Below are positions 9,461-38,600 of a stretch of DNA of 64,000 nt, piece by piece. The notes under the pieces were generated by a model. It had not been told where the DNA came from, did no database searches, and saw only the letters and a list, made by a program, of their open reading frames with translations. The DNA comes from Gordius albopunctatus (lineage: Eukaryota). The stretch's first letter is position 1. Each line of letters starts with the position of its first letter. Where the stretch lies: NCBI GenBank assembly GCA_964276515.1, contig OZ193909.1, forward strand, positions 17,174,001 to 17,238,000. The letters run 5' to 3'. Position numbers and translations under genes: made by a program.

Positions 9461-10666
9461 TTTTGTAGAGAAATAAGTTTCTACTTTTAATATAACCCAA
9501 ATGATTCAAGAGAATGAATTCTTTTATGTAACATATTGTGTTTATATACATCTAGTAAGTTTACTTGTGTGAATAATAACGAGAGATTTAAATTATAATG
9601 AGTGGTCAAATACAAGGTTAAGATTTATGAATAGTGAGAGTTGTGAATGCTCGAATAATAAAGGTTAAGTTTTTCCTAGGTAACCGATGTTCGAGTTGCT
9701 TTATTCAAATTGCCTAGGTAACCATATAATTCCCCTCCTATTTGCAAGGAGTGCTAAAAATGAAAGTAAAAATTATCAGTTAGCTTAGTTTATCAAGGGT
9801 TTATTGTTTGCACTAGTGTTTGCTGGTGTTGTGACCGAGGACCCTGGAAGTTGATGTGCTATCCAATATATAATTAGATTTGTCGGAGCAGACATATCTA
9901 TTTTAGAATCGCATTCTTCCCTCAGTTAAATCGGTCAGTATTGGTTAAAACCTTGATAGTGGTAGGTAGTAGTTAGTAAGTGTTTTTGCGTTGCCGAACG
10001 TCATCTTTGCTCGTTGCAATCGGTCCTGCGATGTGTTTTGCAAATAAGTTCATTGGCAGAGCAGTGGACCAATAGGACGTTCAGTAGACGGTGTTGTTGC
10101 TTGTGTAGCGGAGTAGTAGGGTAACCTGGTTTTCTTCGTATTAACAATTAGATAGGTAGGTAGATTGTATCTTTCCCAGCAGTCGGACAAATATGGATGC
10201 CGAATTTAGAAGATAATGCCCTATATCTGAATTGTTTTATTTTAACTAAGAAAACCAACTGATATTACTAAATGGACTGTTATGGGGGGAGAAAAATTAT
10301 GTCACCTCCGACAGTCGGGTTAATGTTTACCTGGGTTATAAATTTATAGGGGGGAGGAATTTAAAAAAATTCGGCTCCCCCGAAACGTCGGGGTCACCAT
10401 TTTTTAGAGAAATAAGTTTCTACTTTTAATATAACCCAAATGATTCAAGAGAATGAATTCTTTTATGTAACATATTGTGTTTATATACATCTAGTAAGTT
10501 TACTTGTGTGAATAATAACGAGAGATTTAAATTATAATGAGTGGTCAAATACAAGGTTAAGATTTATGAATAGTGAGAGTTGTGAATGCTCGAATAATAA
10601 AGGTTAAGTTTTTCCTAGGTAACCGATGTTCGAGTTGCTTTATTCAAATTGCCTAGGTAACCATAT
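9461..10666 (-). mobile_element. Non-autonomous Gypsy-type LTR retrotransposon (TRIM-like), tRNA-Trp PBS
   Basis: 267-bp direct repeats 9461-9727 and 10400-10666 (one mismatch seen); minus-strand PBS TGGTGACCCCGACGT (10385-10399) complementary to tRNA-Trp 3' end; PPT GGAGGGGAA before the other LTR; flanks (a)tgtg on both sides; no internal ORF. Confidence 0.9.
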
Positions 10667-11787: not shown

Positions 11788-12881
11788 TATTGAAATTTGG
11801 AATCTCATATATTTTGGATGGCTAGATTATTTTATATAACAGCCTATATTTATCTGTTATCAGTGTCACGTTTTAATAAGATTATTATCTAGCTAAGTTT
11901 AGATAGAATACTATTTGTAACTTTTATATATGATGTTTATATGTATTGTTTTAAAGTTGATTAATACATGAAGTGCTGATATACACGACTTAGAAATTAT
12001 ATTGATCTATTATGTTTTGTTACCAATCTTGATCCTGTAGCCTACACAAGAAGAGAATTTTTGATTTTATGGAAAAAATATGTCTCATTTTCAATGTTGT
12101 GTTGAAATTACAAATAGTTAAACAACCAAATTTGCTTAATTTTTTTTATTTGTTTTAAATTAAATTTTCACCAAAATTGTTAAGCCAGCTCTTATATAAA
12201 GTTTTTCCCACCTTATAGGTGTTTATATATTGGATTATCATTATCTTTATACTCTTTAATTATACTTAAGTTTATTCCAAATACACGATTGTGTAAAATT
12301 TAATGATTAAATTTATTGACCCTAGGCACATACCCAGGATTTTCTCAAGGGGGAATTTTCAATTTTTTAAAATTTTTATTTATCATATAATAAAGATAAG
12401 AAGAGTCCCCGTTCTGCTTAAGGTCTTTTGCGGGCTTGGGTGGGAACCGTAATAAGATTAGAGCGATTCCCGCCTAATAAGATTATTATTGTTTTAGTGT
12501 ATTATTTTGTTACCTTATTATTAGATATAATAATATTTATTAATAGTGTTTCTTATCTAAAAAACGACAATTAAATTTATAGCCTTTCAAAAATATAATG
12601 AAATTACCATGGGCAAAATTTTCTGAAATTCATTATAATTATGGCTAAAATTTCAAAAAATGATCATTTTGCTTCTCCCTAAATCATTAATGCCCCCCTT
12701 TAATCCCAATGCTGGCTATGCCCATGGAAATTACTGCTAAAAATTAAGTGTTCGGGCATGGCCGTGCGGACTTTTCGAAGAGTTTAAGCAGGCCATGATG
12801 CCTAATTTAATTATAAAATCGGATGGGGTTCGGGCTGAAATTTTAACAGATCTGACCTCTTAAAAGTATAAAATGTGTATA

Positions 12882-13765
12882 TCTATATATATAAAGTAAA
12901 GTCTATGTATGTAAGGGCTAAATTCTGAAACTACCGGTCCGATTCGCGCGAAAATTGAACTGTAGATGCCCAGGAGGGCCAGGGGTAAACAGCTTTTTCA
13001 GAATCCTAAAATTCCTTTTAGTTTTACAAATATGGGCCTTTTAGTTTTAAAAAAGGGCTAAATTATGAAACTACCGGCCCGATTCGCGCGAAAATTTAGC
13101 CGTAGATGGCCAGGGGTAAAATAGCTTTTTCAGAATCCTAAAATTCCTTTTAGTTTTAAAAATATCGGACATTTCCCGGCCAGTTTCGTTTATAGCAGCA
13201 TACACAATAATGACGTCATACATACAAGGCTGAAGTTTTCTCGAATTAGATATTTAAAAGTATAATAAAAATGTTACAGTATACGGTCAAAATTATTGGG
13301 GTTTAACAAACTATTTAAATTAAATAAATAATATTTAAATTATTATCACGTAGTCGATCATAGAAGCATATTTTTAATAATTATCCATCCATCCTTCAAT
13401 TAATTATTTTATTATATTAAAGAAAATTGTATCTCAAATAAATCAGCTAACTAGAAAAATAAAATAATGGTATTATTGTATAATAAGTAACAGCATTGAT
13501 CAGCAATTTTTTCAAAAACCTTTAATTTTAGTCGGATTTGATGAGTAAAACAGAATTCGCATTTCGTTTGTCTTATTATATATATACTAAAAATAGTGTG
13601 TTCATAAAATCCACGACGTGATAAAATTCGTGCTCTAAATAAATATTATGGATATTTTATTTATTTGAATTATTATTTCATATATGACCCCATTTTAGAT
13701 AAGTCTTATTAATAGGTTATACTTATTTAACCACTTAAGGACTGAGCCAAAGCAACGTTTGGCCG
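12882..13765 (+). mobile_element. Non-autonomous Helitron-like element (3' CTAG end missing)
   Basis: A|TC start (tctatatatataaa), internal tandem duplication, 3' hairpin gccaaagcaacgtttggc; homologous to 24226-24947. Confidence 0.7.
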
Positions 13766-14227
13766 AAAACGGTATCAAAAAATGGATTTAGGCCTTTGGC
13801 CGGGGTCAGATCAACTGAGACAATAGCGGCAATATATGCCTATTTACACGCCGTCCACAAAGTCGTCACAGACTCCACTACCGCATACTTTGTCTTATTA
13901 AAAGGAGGGTCAAATTCACCAGTGGTGGAAACCATCATTGCGAACTTCGTAGCAGCATACGACCTATCACACCTACTTAAACTCCACTACAATATTAGAT
14001 GGATTGCCTCCAGTAGCAACCCAGCGGACCTCCCATCCAGAACATGGCTCCCGCCAGAACGATACTCAATACCGAAAAGGGACACCAATATCCCTCCGCA
14101 GGGATTCGAATTGCCGGACCTCACCCTTCACAACAAAGACCTAGACGAGCAAATAGATATCGGCTTCTGGGAAGACGAAAATTTGGGCAATAGCAGCGAG
14201 GAAAACGGAACTGAAACCCCCTCTTAA
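13763..14227 (+). mobile_element. RNase H C-terminal fragment of a hepadnavirus-like (HEART-type) or DIRS-type reverse-transcribing element
   Basis: Frame reads STETIAAIYAYLHAVHKVVTDSTT...IRWIASSSNPADLPSR: RNase H E, D and NPADxPSR motifs; E-to-D spacing 18 aa. Confidence 0.7.
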
Positions 14228-14228
14228 A

Positions 14229-14280
14229 CACGTGACCTACGGCTATATAAACGAAGAAAAAAGACGCACCCTCATTCGCT
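14229..14280 (+). promoter_or_regulatory. Candidate Pol II core promoter (E-box, TATA, initiator)
   Basis: CACGTG 14229-14234, TATATAA 14244-14250, TCATTC 14272-14277 with the A 30 nt after the TATA start. Confidence 0.55.
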
Positions 14281-14291
14281 CTTATTTTTTC

Positions 14292-14566
14292 TGTTCCACG
14301 ATTGTTTACGCACTTTGCCCTCTCTGCTTTCTATTTACACCCTTTATTCTCCCCAAAATTTTCGTCTTACATACATATATGTTTTTTATATAGTTATGAG
14401 TTATACGCGTTAATAAAAGCCCCTGGTGAAACGTAAAAGCGTAGCCAGGGGATCCGAGAAAATAAGGCTTAACCTTCCTCTCGGATATATTTTTTTTGTT
14501 CCACGATTGTTTACGCGCTTTGCCCTCTCTGCTTTCTATTTACACCCTTTATTCTCCCCAAAATTT
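14292..14566 (+). repeat. 70-bp direct repeat pair flanking AATAAA and two stem-loops
   Basis: 14292-14361 and 14497-14566 (one mismatch); AATAAA 14412-14417; stems cccctgg/ccagggg (14420-14451) and atccgaga/tctcggat (14452-14486). Confidence 0.9.
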
Positions 14567-14583
14567 ATCCGTTTCCCCGTTAC

Positions 14584-15070
14584 ATGCCTAGAACCAAAAA
14601 CACGGAGGATAACACAGAGGATATCAGAGCCTCGCTGAGCCCTGTTAGACCAGGGGTTCCCGGTGCGGGCTCAGCGGACCTGGTAGCCCAACTGGTGGAT
14701 ATGCAGAAGGAACAGAACAGAGCGAATCAACACCAAATCGATAGCATTAGGGAGATGCTCGCCACATCGATGTCCATGGTGGGAACTAGTTATAGGCAAC
14801 CTGAGCAGCCAACAACTGCCGCTCCGATTCAGATGCCGTCGACAGTACAAATTATACCGGCACCTGACCCACCTAAGACGCCGGCCTTTTTATACCGAGG
14901 AAATCGCAAAACACACACAGGGTCTAGAAGAGTTGTTGAGGGATCCGGATCAACGAGTCCAAAAAAGGGACAGACACGAAGCCAAATATGCAATCATGAT
15001 GTCGCAAGTCTGCCTCCCGACCTCACCTCTCGAGATACTAGCAGCCCATGATAAACAACTAAAAACACTT
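14584..15070 (+). pseudogene. Frameshifted ORF1/gag- or core-like reading frame of the same element
   Basis: GC-balanced ORF MPRTKNTED...LVAQLVDMQKEQNRANQ (coiled-coil-like), apparently continuing after a frameshift near 14890 as EEIAKHTQGLEELLRDPDQRVQKRDRHEAKYAIMM; no recognised domain. Confidence 0.5.
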
Positions 15071-15577
15071 TCTTGGCGACTTGGGTGTTGCGATTTCGAC
15101 ATCTTTGAACCCCATTTCGGTTAACCAGGTTGTGTCATGCTTGGCCGCTGTTGCCCAATTGAATTTAATGGCCAGCTCGAATTTTTTTTTCGGTACATGT
15201 GGATGCGGGGAGAAAAAAAGTGTGATTATATTAGGCAATGGTTTTCATAACATTTTATAAACTGCTAGGGTGTGTGGTGATTTAAGTTCAAAACAAAGCC
15301 CATTACCATAAACTATCTTATTTTCGTTGATGGTTGTGTCATCTAAACCTTTTCAATAAAAATTGAGCCATAAACACCTAGCACAATAATTTATGAATCT
15401 TGCCAATACAGAATTTTAAGTTATTATTTATAAATTGTTTTAACTTGTATGATAGAGGATTCGATCAAGAAGATAAAAATGTTAATGTGAATAAACTTCA
15501 ATGATTTTAATTAAAATATTAGTAGAAAATTTTGCCTCTTATAACATCTATTAGGTTACCTTAACTTATGTATACTA

Positions 15578-23495: not shown

Positions 23496-26400
23496 TCAAC
23501 AACTATTACTCATCATGAATGGAAATCTCATGGGGTCTGGTCCCATACCAGGGCCCCCAGCAGGCCTAAACATGGGAGTACCCCTCATAAACTGAGGTGG
23601 GCCTCCGAATTGTGATGGCCTCATAAGTTGATGATGTGGCAGTGGAGGTCCGCGTGGGTAAAAATTGTTGTTTTGAGCAGGGGCTTCTGTTGGCCCTCCT
23701 ACAAAGTAACCATCTGGCGTAGGGAAATAATTAGAGGATTGAGATAGGTAGAGATAGGGATTGTTTGGTGGACCATCTGAAAGACCCTGCGATACTGGTT
23801 TAGGAGGTGAAGGCTGACCATCGCTGGCTGGATAGAGATTTGAGGCTTCCGTACTAAAAATGTCTGCTGAGTGGTGTAATTATTAAAAAATACTCGTGAT
23901 AAGAAAGAATGGGTTTAAGTTTTTAATATATAAAACCTCCTTGACCAAATAGAAACTTTCGAGAAAGTTTTTATATATATGTTTAATATTATTTACACTT
24001 TTCTGGTTTAAGTGCATTCCTTAATAATATTAAGTGTTGAGGTGTAAAAGATTATCTCATTAAAAACATGTGACTGCCAGAGCCAACATTCAGTAAAGTT
24101 TTCTGTCAACTTAAATTCCGAGGTCTTGTTTTTACCATTAGTCTTAAAGTTAAGATTATATATAAGGCCTAAGCTTGTAAATATCGAACCTGGCAACCAA
24201 TAAAACTTGCCTACATTAAATAGATTTTCAGATTCCTAAAATTCCTTTTAGTTTTAAAAATATCTGACATTTCCTGGCCAGTTTCATTTATAGCATCATA
24301 TACAATAATGACGTCATACATACAAGGCTGAAGTTTTCTCGAATTAGATATTTAAAAGTATGATAAAAGTGTTACAGTATACGGTCAAAATTATTGGGTT
24401 TTAACAAACTATTTAAATTAAATAAATAATATTTAAATTAATAGCTTTTGTAGAATCCTTAAATTCCTTTTAGTTTTAAAAATATCGGACATTTCCCGGC
24501 CAGTTTCATTTATAGCATCATATACAATGATGACGTCATACATACAAGGCTGAAGTTTTCTCGAATTAGATATTTAAAACTTTTAAAATTAAAAGTATAA
24601 TAAAAATGTTACAGTATAAGGTCAAAATTATTGGGGTTTAAGAAACATTTAATTTAAATAAATAAAATAGTGGTTTATAAACACTTTTGTCACTCAACTG
24701 TGCATGTTATCGCTAAACATCGCTACCTAATAAGTATTTAAAGCTATTAAAAATCTATTTAATTAATAATAAATATGCCTTTTTCTATTAAGTTAATATT
24801 TATTTGCATAATATAAAAATACATTTTTCACATCACAAACTCTCTTTCAGCTGACCCAAATGCTTTCATATATTTCCTATTGCTAGGTACCAATTATTTT
24901 GCCAAATAAGTACTAAGCCAAAGCAATGCTTGGCCGGGCACAGGTAGTATATTAATATTTGTCAATATATTTAGCAATAACAATTTTATATAATGTAAAT
25001 TAAAGTTTTATAAGCTTGCTTATTTTACTTTTATTCAGTAGCAAACTAATGTATATCCTTTAATTTATATGATTTAGTGTATATAGCAAATTTAGTTTTC
25101 AATTTTTTGTCAATTAGATATTAACAATTGTAGAATTTGTAAACTTTATCTTAATGTTAAATTTTTTAAATTTTCCTAATTCTATATATGATTTAAATTT
25201 ATCAATCACCAGGTTAAAAATAGTTTAAATTTTTGATAATATCTAATATTTATTAATCATAAAGTTCTAATAGCCTTTCTTATGGAAACATAAATGGCTA
25301 ACTTGGTGCACTGAAGATTGATACTGCAGGCATAAGGTCTGGCATTGAGGGGAAAGGAGGTGGTGGCCTAAAAGGAATGATTTTTGGCTGATTTGAAGTT
25401 TGATTGGGCAACATAGGTGGTACAATATTATTCATGTCAGTTGGAAAGGTAGGAGGATGTAGAACATTTAGCATTTGAGGTGTTGATTGAGGTATTATTT
25501 GCAAAACAACATTTTCACTTACGTTTGAGTCTCTTGTAAGCAGCTTTTCGACACACTTAGATTTATATTTGGGTAAAAGTGCCCTGAGCTCCTCCTTCAC
25601 ATAAAAAAATATAGAAAATTAGTTTTTTATGATAAGGAAGTTGATGCAATTCAACAAATTATAAAAATACTTGTAAAAATTAAACTTATAATAATTACGG
25701 CAGATAAATTAGGGTCTGGGTGCATGATTTTAACAACTAATCCGGAGGAAGAAAGTATGACAGGTGAATTATGGGTGGTTGATTTTATTCCATTTAGTAC
25801 TGTCTCATTTGAACTATTTAAGAAATTTTTGAGTGTTGGATTTAGTTCAATATTGGTGGTGACATTAGAAGGTAAAGGTGAAACATGTTGTTGAGGGGGT
25901 AGATGATTCACATTATTTGTTCTGTCAAATAAGAATTCAAAAGACTATTAAATACAAAAAAAAATTAATTACTTAGATGACATATTGGATTCTAAATTAG
26001 CATAGGCTGGAAACATTGGTCTTACATTTCCAGGTTCTAAAACACCCATAATCTATATAATAATAACAATATAAAGTTTGTAGTAATTATTTATATCTTA
26101 ATAATCCAAAAACTGATTAAGATAAGGCAACAATAGGTGATAAAATTACTTGATTAGAATGAAAATTTTGCCTCAATGGTGGTGGTGGAATATTAGGAGG
26201 TATAGCAATGTTGTGTGAGGCAATGCTATGGATCCTAAAAAAATTAGTTATTAGCAATTATAAGTACAACTAACATGGGAGGTAAAATTGGGGGAGGACC
26301 CAATGGAGGTGCATTCATTGAAACTGGTGGTGGATTGCACATGGGAAAATATCCTTTAATCATAAGAGTATTATAGATTATACAATTTTCTATAATTTAT

Positions 26401-29759: not shown

Positions 29760-32152
29760 GGGCGCGTTGGGGTTTCGATTGAAGTCCTAAAACGGCCATT
29801 TGTGAAAAATAAAGAGAGAGAGAAGTTACTACAGATGGCGCAAGCTTACGATATGGCCATTGTGAATACCTTCTTTTAGAAGCGTACCGAACATTTAGCG
29901 ACGTACAGTAGTGGGGATCACCTTACACAGGTCGACTACATATTAATGAAGCACAAAAATTTGTGGCAAGTTAAAGATTGCAAGGTTATACCGGGGGAAG
30001 AAATCGCCAAACAACATCGGCCAGTTGTCCTCGATATAGCAAGAAAGATTTTTCCCGTAAGGAGAAAAGTTTAAACACCAAGGACAAAGTACGAAAAGCT
30101 TAAGGATGATCGTGCAAATGAAATGTTTCACGCTCGAGCAACTCCGCTCTTGAAGGTTGCAGGCTTGGAGGGCGACATTAACAAAAGGTGGGGTACCGTT
30201 GCAAATGTTCTAAAGGAAACGGCCTTTCAAATATTGGGACGAACTAAGGGCGGCAGAGCTCACAAGCGTGAACTATGGTGGTGGAATGACTAGGTCAAAG
30301 AGGTTATAGAAGAAAAGAAGGCGTTGTACCTACGATGGTACAAAACGAAGAAAGGAGAAGACTACGAGGCATATCGTTAACCTAAACGCAAAGCTAAGAT
30401 AGCGGTCGCGATAGCGAAGAACGAGGCTTACACCGAGATGGCAAACAAGCTAGATACCAAGGGCGGCGACATAGTCATGTATAAACTCGCAAAGATCAGG
30501 GAGAAAAAAAGTCGAGATGTCGGGACACTTAAAGTCATTAAAAGCGAAGAGGGACGAACGTTGTGCAAACCGAAGGAAGTCATCAAAAGATGGAAAGATT
30601 ATTTACAAAATATGATGAACAGAACGAATGATAGAAGACCGCTAGAGAGGGTGGAACCGAACTCGAACTTTTACCATTGCAGGCTTATGAAATAGGAGCA
30701 CAACTAACGAAGATGCGGAAAGGGAAAGCGCTAGGTCCCGATGATCTACCGATCGAAGCTTGGCTTGGGTGCAAAGGAGAAGGAATCGACATAATGACAG
30801 GCCTATTTAACGCTATGCTGTATGAGAGTCGTATCCCTGACCAATGGAGGGAAAGTACGATCATACCCATATACAAAGGTAAAGGAGACGCGCAGGAATG
30901 TGGCAACTTTAGAGGTATCAAGTTGACCTGCCACTAACTAAAACTACTAGAAAGGGTGCTAGTGAAAAGGCTCAATGACGAAGTTTGTCTCTCGCCCAAT
31001 CAGTTTAGATTTGTGGCCGGTAAATCAACGATGGACCCAATCTTTGCGTTGAAGCAGACGATGGAAAAATATGGCGGCATAAGAAAGAACTTACACATGG
31101 TCTTCATCAATTTAGAAAAGGCCTACGATACGGTTCCGAGAGGCTTAATATGGTGGTCCCTTTGAGCCAGAAATATACCCGAAGGATATGTTCGACTTAT
31201 CAAGGAAATGTATAATGGCGCGGTTGCATCTGTTAGGACTACCGTAGGAGTAACGAAACCCTTCCGAATAATGATCGGACTACATCAAGGATCAGCGTTA
31301 AGCCCATTCTTGTTTAATCTAATTATGGATACAATAACAAAGGACTTGCACAAGCCAGCCCCTTGGACTATGCTATGTGCCGACGATATTGTCCTATGCG
31401 ATGAAACAAGAGAAGGGGTTTTTCATCAGGGGAAAAAATGGTCAGAACGTTTTTCGGAATTCGGGTTAAAGGTCAGCGAGAATAAAACGGTTTACATGCA
31501 AACGATGGGCGGTAGTCCGCAAATGCACAAAAATGACGGTCCAAGGTACACGGAGGTTGATAAGTTAACATACCTTGGCTCGCTATTACATCAAGAGGGA
31601 GGATGTACCGCCGAAGTCCATTCTCGGATCAAGAAAGCATGCCTCAAGTGACGCAGCATCTCCGGTGTCATGTGTGACAAAAAGATACCAATTTGGTTGA
31701 AAAGCAAGGCATACAAAACCATCGTGCGACCGGTCTTGCTTTACGGGAGCGAAACATGGGCTGTAACCAGAAACTCTTGCAACTCACGGAAATGAGAATG
31801 GTGCAATGGAGCTTAGGCTACACCAAGCTGGATAGCATGACGAACGAATCCTTCATGACAAAGATGGGTATACAAGCGACGAAGGACTTCTTAAGAGAAA
31901 ATCGACTGCGGTGGTACGGCCATGTATTACGAAGAGACAAAGACGATGTCACACGCCGAACGCTGGAGATGGACGTGCCTGGAAGAAGAGGAAGGGGCAG
32001 ACCACGTGCCACCTGGAAACGACTGTTCGAAAAGGATATGAACGTCAAACAGATGAAAATTGGCATGGCATTACCACGACTCAGATGGAAGAGGCTGCTG
32101 AAAACGTACCCCACCAACGTCTGTGGGATTTTCAACACGATAAAGAAGAAAA
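29760..32152 (+). mobile_element. 5'-truncated, disrupted RTE LINE (endonuclease C-term, linker, RT)
   Basis: Collinear ORF pieces 30438-32199 with GPDD, IIPIYKGKGD, LEKAYD, GLHQGSALSP, CADD, YLGS; many stops/frameshifts; taaagaagaa tail. Confidence 0.93.
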
Positions 32153-32690
32153 TGTATATAGCAAAACAACGTTTACCGGGTCAGCTAGTAACTCTATAAT
32201 AAACTCGTGTTTTAATAACAGGATTTAGAAAATCATACGTAAAATTTGAGATGCAGAATACTTATAAAATAAATATTTAATTTATGTTATAAGTGCAGAG
32301 AAGGATTGCCTAAAATATTTCATTCTTACCTAACCCTTCCGACCTATCTGGTCTAATCCCATATATTGCCTGGTCTAATTTGTTTTCATTTGCAAATCAT
32401 ATCGCACACAAATATTTTTATCTTCACCTAAATATTTTATTTATCCTTTGTAGAAGTAATCTCTTCTTCTTCTTTATCAGTTATTTGGTCCCACATTGGT
32501 GGGGTTTGTTTTGATAAGTTTCTTCCATCTTGACCGGGTGAGTGCCATGTCTTGACTAATCTCTTTATTCATAACTTTATCGACTTGCCCTTTCCACGTG
32601 ACACGGGGTCATCATCTTTCTCTCTTCCCCGGTACCTCCATGTCCAGTACTTTTCGATTTACGTCATCCGTGTCCCTTCTTAGTATATGC

Positions 32691-35661: not shown

Positions 35662-38600
35662 CTCTTGATGTAGCATGGATCCGAGGTATGTGAACCTGTC
35701 TAGATTTGGGTAAATTCTTCTTATTTAATTCTCCTATTGTGTTTTCCTGGTTAGTGTTTTCGATTACAGGCCCCTTTTCAATTGATAAATTGCTATAATA
35801 GTCCTACCATCTTTGTAGTATATGGCTGTCGTGTGTTAGTATTTCTGCCTTTTGACCCTTGATTAGCCGGCATTCTAGGTAATCTTTAGAATTTCGGGCC
35901 CTTGACTTTGCGATTTTGTAGATCAATCTTTCTCCTTCCTTGATCTGAGTTTAAGGCTTCATAAATATTTTTCATAAGCCGTATATATGCGTCAGGTATA
36001 TTTTGTTTCCTCAGGCACCGCCATATTAAATCGCGGGGGACCGTATCAAAAGCTTTATCCAAGTCGATAAAAACCATATGTAAGTCTTTCCTCTTTTCAC
36101 CATACTTATCCATCATTTGTCCTAGGGCGAAGATAGGATCGATTGTGGATTTGCCGGCCACGAATCCGAATTGATTAGCCGATATTTCCACCTCATCTTT
36201 CAGCCTTGTTACTAAGATCCTTTCAATAAGCTTCAAGGAGCGGCAAGTTAGCTCGATACCTCTGTAATTGCAGCAGTCCTGAGGGTCTCCTTTGCCTTTA
36301 AATAAGGGTATAATCGTGCTTGCTCTCCACTGATTAGGGATAGGCTCTTCTACCAATATCTTGTTAAAGAGGTTCGTCATGGTGGTGACTCCTTCTTCAC
36401 GACATCCGAGCAATGCTTCCATAGGTATTCCATCTGGGCCATTTGCTTTTCCTTTTTGCATCTTGTTCATTTGTGTCCTAACTTCATCCTCCTGAAAGAG
36501 TTCGACCATACTTATATTTGGCTCAATTTCGGGAAGGGGATCCTTGTCATTTGCAATATTCATAAGTTTCTTAAAATATCCTTTTCACCTTTATATCACT
36601 TCTTTCGGCTTGAATAAGGTTTGACCCTTCTCGCTTTTGACTATTTTAAGAACTCCGACATCGCGACTTTTCTTCTCCCTTATCTTGGCCAATTTGTACA
36701 TAAACCTATCGCCCCCTTTATGAACCAGTTTGTTTGCCATCTCAGGTGTACGCGGCATTCTTCGCTTTTGCAACGGCTTTTTTTGCGGTCCTCTTTGCGT
36801 ACCTGTACTCTTGATAATCCTCTCACTTTTTTCATTTATGCCACCGTCTATATAGATTTTTCTTTCTTTCGATGAAATCTTTAACCGATTGATCCCACCA
36901 CCATAATTCCCTATTCATAGCTTTGCCTCCTTTGGTCTGTCCTGGAACACGAATCGCTGTTTCCTTAATGTCCTGAGGTAGCGTCTCCCAATCGTCGTCT
37001 ACGTCCCTTTGCAACTTACTTGCCCCCAAGAGTGAGGAGGCTTTTTGATGGTATTCTTTGTTCGTCGACGTATCATTTAGCCTTTCGTATCGAATTCGAG
37101 GTTCATAGATCTTTCTTCTTTCGGGAAATACTCTTCTGTCAAGATCTATAACAAGGGGACGATGTTGCCTGGCGATTTCTTCTCCCGGTATTACCTTGCA
37201 ATCCTTGATACTCCATAAGTCCTTTCGCCGTATAAGCAAATATTCGATTATACTAAAATACTTCCCACTTCTATAGGTCACAATATGATCTTCGCGCCTT
37301 TGAAAAAAGGTGTTAAAAATCGCCATGTCATATGCTTGGGATACTTGTAGAAGTTTTCCCCCTTCTTTGTTCTTCAGACCATGCGGATAGCCTCCATGAT
37401 TGCGTTCATACACGAGGCGATCTTTCCCAACGTGAGCGTTGAAATCTGCCCCAATAATTAGCCTTTCTTTCTGTCCTATTCCTTGTATTTCCTTTTCCAA
37501 TGAATCGAAGAATATGTCTTTCTCTGATTCCAAACATCCAATTTGGGGAGCTTACGCGCACACAACGGTTAGGAGGCCCCCTTGATCTGCAATCTTTACC
37601 CACATTAGCCTGTCGGAACAACGCTTGACTTCCACCACCTTATCCTTGAACTATTCGCTTAGAACGATACCGAACCCGTTTCTACGATTTGGTGATCCAC
37701 TGTAGAAAAGATTGTATCCTTCTCCTAATTCCCGAGCTTTCGTTCCGTTCCACCTCGTCTCTTGTAGGCAGGGGATGTGTACATTTCTTCTTTTTGGCAT
37801 CTGTGCGACCTCGATTATCTTCCCCGTCAACGTTCCCACATTCCAGCACGTAATTCGCTTTCTTTCCACAACTAGTTTCCTTAACCGCCTTCGTTGTGAG
37901 TTAAGCAGTAACCCTAGTGTATTTTTCATATTGCACGAGCGGGGTTGGAGAAAGAATACAATTAAATATAATTTAAACATACCTAAAAAAGTTCTTAAAT
38001 TTTACTGTTATTTGGATTTGTCTAATAAAAAATCAGTATTTAATTAAATCAAAATTTTGAGGTTGAGATATTCCAAAATTTTAGAAGTAAATATTGATAA
38101 AAAAAATAAAAAAGTGAATTAAAGATTAAACTCATATTTACCCCGCTCCACCCAATAAAGTTCCTAACACTTATTAAGTGAGTTATATATCTTTGATAAA
38201 AAACTACTTTTTTGTATCTGAAAAATCGAGAGGCCTTATACGCAAGGCGCGGAAATCATAAAGAAATCAATGGCTTAGCGGTCTTAATTCCCTGGCTGGG
38301 GGATTTAATTTTACTCAGAAGGGGTAAACGGCAGCTGATATTTTTGTAAGTTTGCCTGGCTAACTTAGTGGATAACTGGTTTTTTTATAAAGTTATTCCT
38401 AGGACTGTAGTAACAATTTCGCCTTAACTCGTCATTTTACGTCAATTAATAATAGGTTTTCAAATCAAGTTAAATATTCTCACTATTGTTTCCATTTGAT
38501 ATACATTTATAACATATTCCTTTTAAGGAACTCTAACTGCTCTGGCTAGGAGTTTATATACTTGAACTTATGGCATTATAATAATTTTTTTACCGTCTAT

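Follow-up and report, generated by a model that had tools for sequence, protein, structure and literature searches.

A broken copy of an unclassified retroelement in the hepadnavirus, HEART and VIPER zone in Gordius albopunctatus

The question raised by this locus was what kind of element carries a hepadnavirus-like RNase H directly in front of a promoter, a repeated segment and a new open reading frame. The locus lies in a 64,000-nucleotide stretch of the Gordius albopunctatus genome (the window; contig OZ193909.1, with all positions counted from the first letter of the stretch), and a first-pass annotation had taken it for a candidate endogenous pararetrovirus-like element. We found that the locus does hold a retroelement fragment, unclassified and falling in the zone of hepadnaviruses, HEART and VIPER elements, and its viral nature is unproven. 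The reading that we prefer, with a probability of about 45%, is a HEART-like element without a recombinase, whose copying would use an RNA with terminal redundancy and a DNA form that is circular or tandem.

The element extends from 13766 to 15174 (about 1.4 kb) within AT-rich, repeat-laden, animal-type DNA, and is a broken, dead copy of a multi-copy retroelement. The frame carrying the motifs quoted in the annotation ends at 14227, as claimed, and proved to be chimeric. Positions 13739-13765 belong to an upstream repeat, 13766-13811 (+ strand) are the start of pol, the stretch directly before the reverse transcriptase (RT), and the RNase H begins at a joint at about 13811, where a deletion of about 360 codons, RT included, joins the two pieces in frame. 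The first ten codons of the copy had their best ungapped match at residues 6-15 of protein P0001 and residues 46-55 of P0006 (0 of 500 shuffles in each case), and contigs from two runs depart from the window at 13778 and 13811. BLASTP gave no alignment between the 13766-13811 piece and P0029. From left to right, the copy consists of the start of pol, the deletion, the end of the RNase H, a TATA box with initiator, repeat A, AATAAA, a pair of hairpins, repeat A' and a broken ORF1. Read round, the parts make up a single unit (ORF1, pol, control region) whose opening lies between ORF1 and RT, a permuted order consistent with a circle or a tandem pair. The circular or tandem junction order that had been proposed is borne out by the RNase H end, the control region and ORF1, together with the start of pol at the left of the copy, and it is stronger than originally described because the copy also starts with the beginning of pol. 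The interval between ORF1 and RT, where VIPER/TATE elements hold their recombinase, is absent from the window copy.

On the left, the element abuts a very-high-copy repeat (12881-13765, + strand) that lies outside it, is cut about 12 nt before its own end and, as far as 13765, has roughly a thousandfold the depth of single-copy DNA. The end of a second copy of this repeat, which runs from 24218 to 24936-24950, continues beyond the matching point. The repeat family, which we take to be Helitron-like, has internal 140-bp repeats; the retroelement starts at the point where the first copy breaks off. On the right, the copy ends in a 108-bp inverted piece of ORF1 (15067-15174, - strand), delimited by opposite-strand joints at 15066-15069 and 15174-15175 in runs X1 and X2; past 15174, coverage falls to near single copy. 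TGGCC occurs close to both junctions of the copy. Elsewhere in the window, broken pieces of non-LTR retrotransposons, presumably RTE-like, lie at 31166-32199, 35886-37551 and 241-720 (two match RVT_1). A perfect 267-bp direct repeat (9461-9727 and 10400-10666, 939 bp apart) may reflect either a local duplication or a small element of LTR type, and successive tiles across 33213-33555 fold strongly (-34 to -39 kcal/mol per 76 nt).

Positions 13812-14104 (+ strand) encode the C-terminal half of a retroelement RNase H, with the E helix, TDS, KxGSxSP and NPADLPSR, as judged from relatives and third-position bias; the first catalytic aspartate is missing from the window copy. Pol then ends in an acidic tail and stop (14105-14227, + strand; residue composition and sequence), with 12 acidic residues among the last 40 and 11 in P0003 and P0005. 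Among the 40 of 303 copy differences listed, 13 of the 16 in the RNase H core were at third codon positions (p 0.0001) and 12 of the 16 were silent. The element family is multi-copy and, by this pattern of differences, under coding selection. Pfam gave no match to three window peptides, PDB sequence searches with the RNase H piece and ORF1 gave no real match, and a structure model of the RNase H was unusable (pLDDT 48).

The claim that the frame encodes a retroelement RNase H was confirmed by its relatives. A HMMER scan of 1.84 billion proteins returned four matches at E ≤ 0.001, of which three were from the horsehair worm Gordionus (E 7e-11 to 7e-8; 38-46% identity to the window peptide) and the fourth was unrelated. 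One Gordionus protein, P0001, combines RT (RVT_1, E 2e-21) with RNase H. The Gordionus relatives have a short tail after the RNase H and no further Pfam domain, and further Gordionus pieces were recovered, spread over several chromosomes. A word-based search for longer relatives yielded none among 361 candidates, related loci were absent from the scanned viral contigs and metagenomes, and a Toolik virus pattern was looked for and not found. P0004, a repeat-rich protein, was rejected as unrelated, and L014, the sole prokaryote match, has a stop-broken frame and was taken as chance. No report was found in the literature on DIRS retrotransposons of Nematomorpha or transposable elements of Gordionus; Repbase and the 2018 HEART paper lay outside this search, and the element may already be catalogued.

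The 18-residue E-D spacer had been offered as a hepadnavirus sign. The glutamate lies 6 nt past the deletion joint, and the spacer is 24 residues in all five Gordionus relatives, so its length in the window is uninformative on hepadnaviruses and the argument fails. Among hepadnaviruses, 11 of 13 had 19 residues there, and seven of ten DIRS-like rows had 25. The window and the Gordionus relatives share a next spacer of 52 residues; hepadnaviruses have 40 at that place and DIRS1/PAT have 50-51. The compact hepadnaviral RNase H (spacers 19 and 40, read in 11 of 13 records, the pattern having missed two) is absent from the window and its relatives, and NPADLPSR is also present in the DIRS1-like protein P0007. 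The lack of an adjoining recombinase, likewise put forward, does not discriminate either: the VIPER order is gag, tyrosine recombinase (YR), then RT/RNase H, so no recombinase is expected after the RNase H and its absence downstream says nothing. We detected no recombinase in the window, none in fusion with a relative, and no methyltransferase or recombinase after the RNase H, neither in the window, where the stop at 14227 is followed by the promoter, nor in the relatives. We weakly favour a family without an integration enzyme of its own.

Trees were built from 13 hepadnavirus records and uncharacterised retroelement proteins, a set that leaves out VIPER, TATE and published HEART sequences and in which Ngaro is represented by one RT. 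The RT tree with more groups was built on 27 of 39 trimmed rows, the RNase H tree on 28 of 38 and the RT+RNase H tree on 22; the rows removed were fragments, near-duplicates and a single misaligned one. The DIRS1, PAT and Ngaro labels on uncharacterised proteins come from motifs, Dam matches and a match by eye of P0041 to a Ngaro row in the accessible part of PMC12691608. In the first RT tree, Gordionus adjoined DIRS-like rows (87/74); in a later RT tree that included more groups, its neighbours were hepadnaviruses and uncharacterised RT-RNase H proteins (76/82). In the RNase H tree, the window, Gordionus, hepadnaviruses and uncharacterised RT-RNase H proteins joined at 98/94 (86/84 once the last motif was dropped), and the RT+RNase H tree gave the same hepadnavirus-side grouping at 83/74. 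Support for the grouping beside hepadnaviruses was starred in one of the four trees; the branches are long, and long branches meet. AU tests rejected a grouping of Gordionus with DIRS1/PAT for RT+RNase H (p-AU 0.008) and did not reject it for the single domains (p 0.176 and 0.163), nor did they reject Gordionus with hepadnaviruses alone (p 0.117). The P0001 RNase H scored 25.9 bits on a DIRS1/PAT profile versus 15.9 on a hepadnavirus profile, and the window peptide scored 8.5 versus 14.5. The atlas clusters ranked first for the window peptide and P0001 were mostly Euglenozoa (0.93 and 0.96), and the hepadnavirus P cluster ranked 20th.

As the first-pass annotation had anticipated, the best trees did not nest the RNase H within DIRS1/PAT. 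These trees place the family outside DIRS1/PAT, loosely beside hepadnaviruses and uncharacterised RT-RNase H elements, and the RNase H probably has closer kin among hepatitis-B-like viruses than among classic DIRS elements. Alternatively, the window copy could stem from a divergent member of Ngaro, PAT or DIRS1 and have lost its recombinase, which would explain the DIRS-like spacers and KxGSxSP segment, the occurrence of NPADLPSR in P0007 and the two of three AU tests that do not reject such a placement. However, RT+RNase H rejects the DIRS1/PAT grouping (p 0.008), the RNase H runs gaplessly into the promoter here and in other copies alike, and it is not followed by the methyltransferase domain seen in several DIRS1/PAT rows; we regard this origin as improbable. 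Eight of the uncharacterised RT-RNase H proteins (P0014, P0022, P0019, P0030, P0031, P0033, P0055 and P0057) have a compact RNase H with nothing after it, and four of them pass the Pfam cut-off for the hepadnavirus polymerase C-terminal domain. As a group they are placed closer to hepadnaviruses than is the Gordionus family (83/78), and P0014 has a 300-residue N-terminal part without a Pfam match. It is possible that these are HEART-type elements.

Behind pol, TATATAAA begins at 14244 and TCATTC sets the predicted +1 at 14274, 30 nt on, with TCAKTY taken by us as the initiator pattern; TATA box and initiator are both where the first-pass annotation had placed them (predicted promoter, 14244-14277, + strand, from sequence). 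A TATA-initiator pair is not by itself above chance (7 in the window, 4 from one TA run, versus 2.7 expected). A contig from a second study spans 14161-14290 at about 90%. The direct repeat described as bracketing AATAAA is present and does so, at a length of 79 bp instead of 70: A (14283-14361, + strand) and A' (14488-14566, + strand) are 97% alike. The predicted polyadenylation signal AATAAA (14412-14417, + strand) is 138 nt after +1 and is the sole + strand instance within 13760-15260. An additional feature, beyond those annotated earlier, is a pair of abutting stem-internal loop-stem-loop hairpins (14419-14486, + strand) found by folding and predicted to be a replication or packaging signal. 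The pair folds at -33.3 kcal/mol (z -6.2; 0 of 200 shuffles), and -30 kcal/mol was reached by 14 of 1683 window tiles. Rfam gave no match to the hairpins (best E 4.2), which correspond to no known ribozyme or epsilon there. The pol tail (14172-14184) and the end of repeat A (14356-14368) match exactly over 13 nt in inverted orientation; the match may be fortuitous, or it could let a terminally redundant RNA pair its ends.

ORF1 opens with the ATG at 14584 that had been reported, and extends to 15066 (+ strand) with a frame change near 14890; it is gag-like by position only. Beyond 14895, among the 40 of 303 copy differences listed, four of four were silent in the second frame and none of four in the first. 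Its product has a long helix followed by a proline-rich stretch. Comparison with the hepadnaviral core fold, suggested in the first-pass annotation, came out negative: the model had one helix at 30-66 (pTM 0.26) and no match to viral folds at E 0.001, a weak test with a partial ORF and about 50 out-of-frame residues modelled, and sequence searches likewise gave no core match.

These features bear on whether the locus derives from a true virus of the Blubervirales, similar to proto-nackednaviruses, that became endogenous. The order RNase H, TATA box, poly(A) signal and ORF is as in those genomes, judging from the available portions of PMC12691608 and PMC11551314, and a grouping of Gordionus and hepadnaviruses alone was not rejected (p 0.117). 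Bulged hairpins are also present, but they are placed after AATAAA. Against such a virus, the RNase H spacers differ, ORF1 has no core-like fold or match, no DR1/DR2-like repeat pair of at least 10 nt (10-14 nt range) was found across the promoter, and the relatives sit on several host chromosomes. Nor was a terminal-protein domain detected in the relatives: PF00242 was absent from P0001 and P0006, whose gene models may miss the true start, and the window copy does not include that part. We do not class the element as a virus because neither a terminal protein nor a core fold was found, and we consider a true virus very improbable.

In the HEART-like reading, the RNA would start at 14274, at the TATA box and initiator behind the RNase H, pass AATAAA once, run through the hairpins, ORF1 and pol, and end at its second encounter with AATAAA. 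Repeat A would be present at both RNA ends and permit a strand jump, and the hairpins, unique to the RNA 5' end, could act in priming or packaging. The ORF1 product would be the particle protein, and copying would yield circular or tandem DNA. Since the hairpins are beyond AATAAA, they would be inherited only if the RNA starts upstream, implying a circular or tandem template or a B repeat (none seen). DNA repair is the likely means by which the window copy was inserted, with its openings in ORF1 and pol, part of its sequence deleted and its end inverted; the breaks inside genes, TGGCC near both junctions and the end inversion point to this route. The promoter, AATAAA and hairpins stand in a pararetrovirus-like order, which supports the HEART-like reading. 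Also in its favour are the RT-RNase H relatives with their short tail, the later trees with the RT+RNase H AU test, the permuted order with its breaks inside genes, the joints in other copies and the lack of a second repeat pair. Counting against it are the lack of a clear role for repeat A', the missing ORF1-RT stretch, the first RT tree, the lower RNase H support once the last motif is dropped, the better DIRS1/PAT profile score of the P0001 RNase H, the Euglenozoa clusters and two of the three AU tests.

Other copies of the element were abundant. The whole element was covered by 253, 440 and 20 contigs (the first two counts from separate runs within a single study, the third from a run in a different study), mostly less than 95% alike, and one contig had six times single-copy depth. 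The many copies and the six-fold depth suggest efficient insertion, which counts against the HEART-like reading. These copies have 13 joints, six of them strand switches, and in them the RNase H also passes gaplessly into the promoter.

An animal tyrosine-recombinase retrotransposon similar to VIPER/TATE (gag, YR, RT/RNase H and terminal direct repeats) is the main alternative, which we rate less likely than not and below the HEART-like reading. A' would then be the left end, A an internal copy, the hairpins would lie at the recombination joint and the window would hold a tandem or circle junction. Coverage drops steeply across the hairpin/A' border, as this alternative would have it, although A'-fitting reads may have been placed on A. 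The gag-YR-RT/RNase H order is given for VIPER in the excerpted text of PMC5146736. In that of PMC6681497, the VIPER RNase H groups with hepadnaviruses, TATE makes tandem clusters, and the RNase H in a TATE sequence, read by eye, carries NPAD and a last spacer of 54 residues, with a stop shortly downstream. The top-ranked atlas clusters are mostly Euglenozoa (0.93 and 0.96), their equation with VIPER/TATE being our inference. Against this alternative, there is no recombinase in the window or fused to relatives, and no second (B) repeat pair, needed for split direct repeats, was found before A (168 of 300 shuffles scored equally; one copy). VIPER is also described from kinetoplastids only in the available text of PMC3783388, with few matches outside them according to that of PMC6681497.

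Hepadnaviruses are thought to derive from invertebrate retroelements (PMC12691608, accessible part), and the mobilisation of HEART elements is described as unresolved (PMC12440569, accessible part). The family falls in this zone of hepadnavirus ancestry, with a full control region and copies in a chromosome-level worm genome. It is a tentative and rather doubtful proposition that it represents an undescribed animal lineage without integrase or recombinase, which copies like a pararetrovirus, spreads in genomes and is intermediate between recombinase retrotransposons and hepatitis-B-like viruses; were it so, the window copy would lay out the control region of that lineage. If the VIPER-like alternative is true, a VIPER-like element in animals would also be notable.

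Among known systems, the closest are the RT-RNase H proteins of Gordionus sp. (XP_065317776.1, XP_065315196.1, CAK9300581.1 and others), with a 38-46% identical RNase H, the same motifs and, like the window, a 52-residue last spacer and a short tail. Unlike the window copy, they keep the RT and have an E-D spacer of 24; they were compared as proteins alone. HEART retroelements were reportedly introduced by Gong and Han in 2018, and we know of no integrase or recombinase in a whole HEART element. The comparison with HEART is by description, with HEART ends and RNase H outside it. HEART elements are invertebrate retroelements beside hepadnaviruses, as described in the parts available of PMC12691608, PMC12440569 and bioRxiv 10.1101/829473; in seven HEART RTs from ticks the active-site motif is IDN or LDN (PMC12691608, in part), whereas the Gordionus RT has YLDD. 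VIPER/TATE elements (order DIRS) share the RT/RNase H as last gene followed by direct repeats, the hepadnavirus-like RNase H and tandem copies, and differ in their kinetoplastid hosts and in requiring both a recombinase and repeats arranged B-A-B, of which the window showed neither (all from partial sources). The split direct repeats of VIPER/TATE, Ngaro and PAT run A1 ... B1 A2 B2, and the window has the A pair and no B pair. Compared to hepadnaviruses and nackednaviruses, the element has long repeats instead of DR1/DR2 of 11-14 nt, no terminal protein or core fold that we found, other spacers and many host copies; with these viruses and proto-nackednaviruses it shares NPADxPSR, the order of RNase H, TATA box, poly(A) signal and ORF, and a bulged hairpin near the RNA 5' end.
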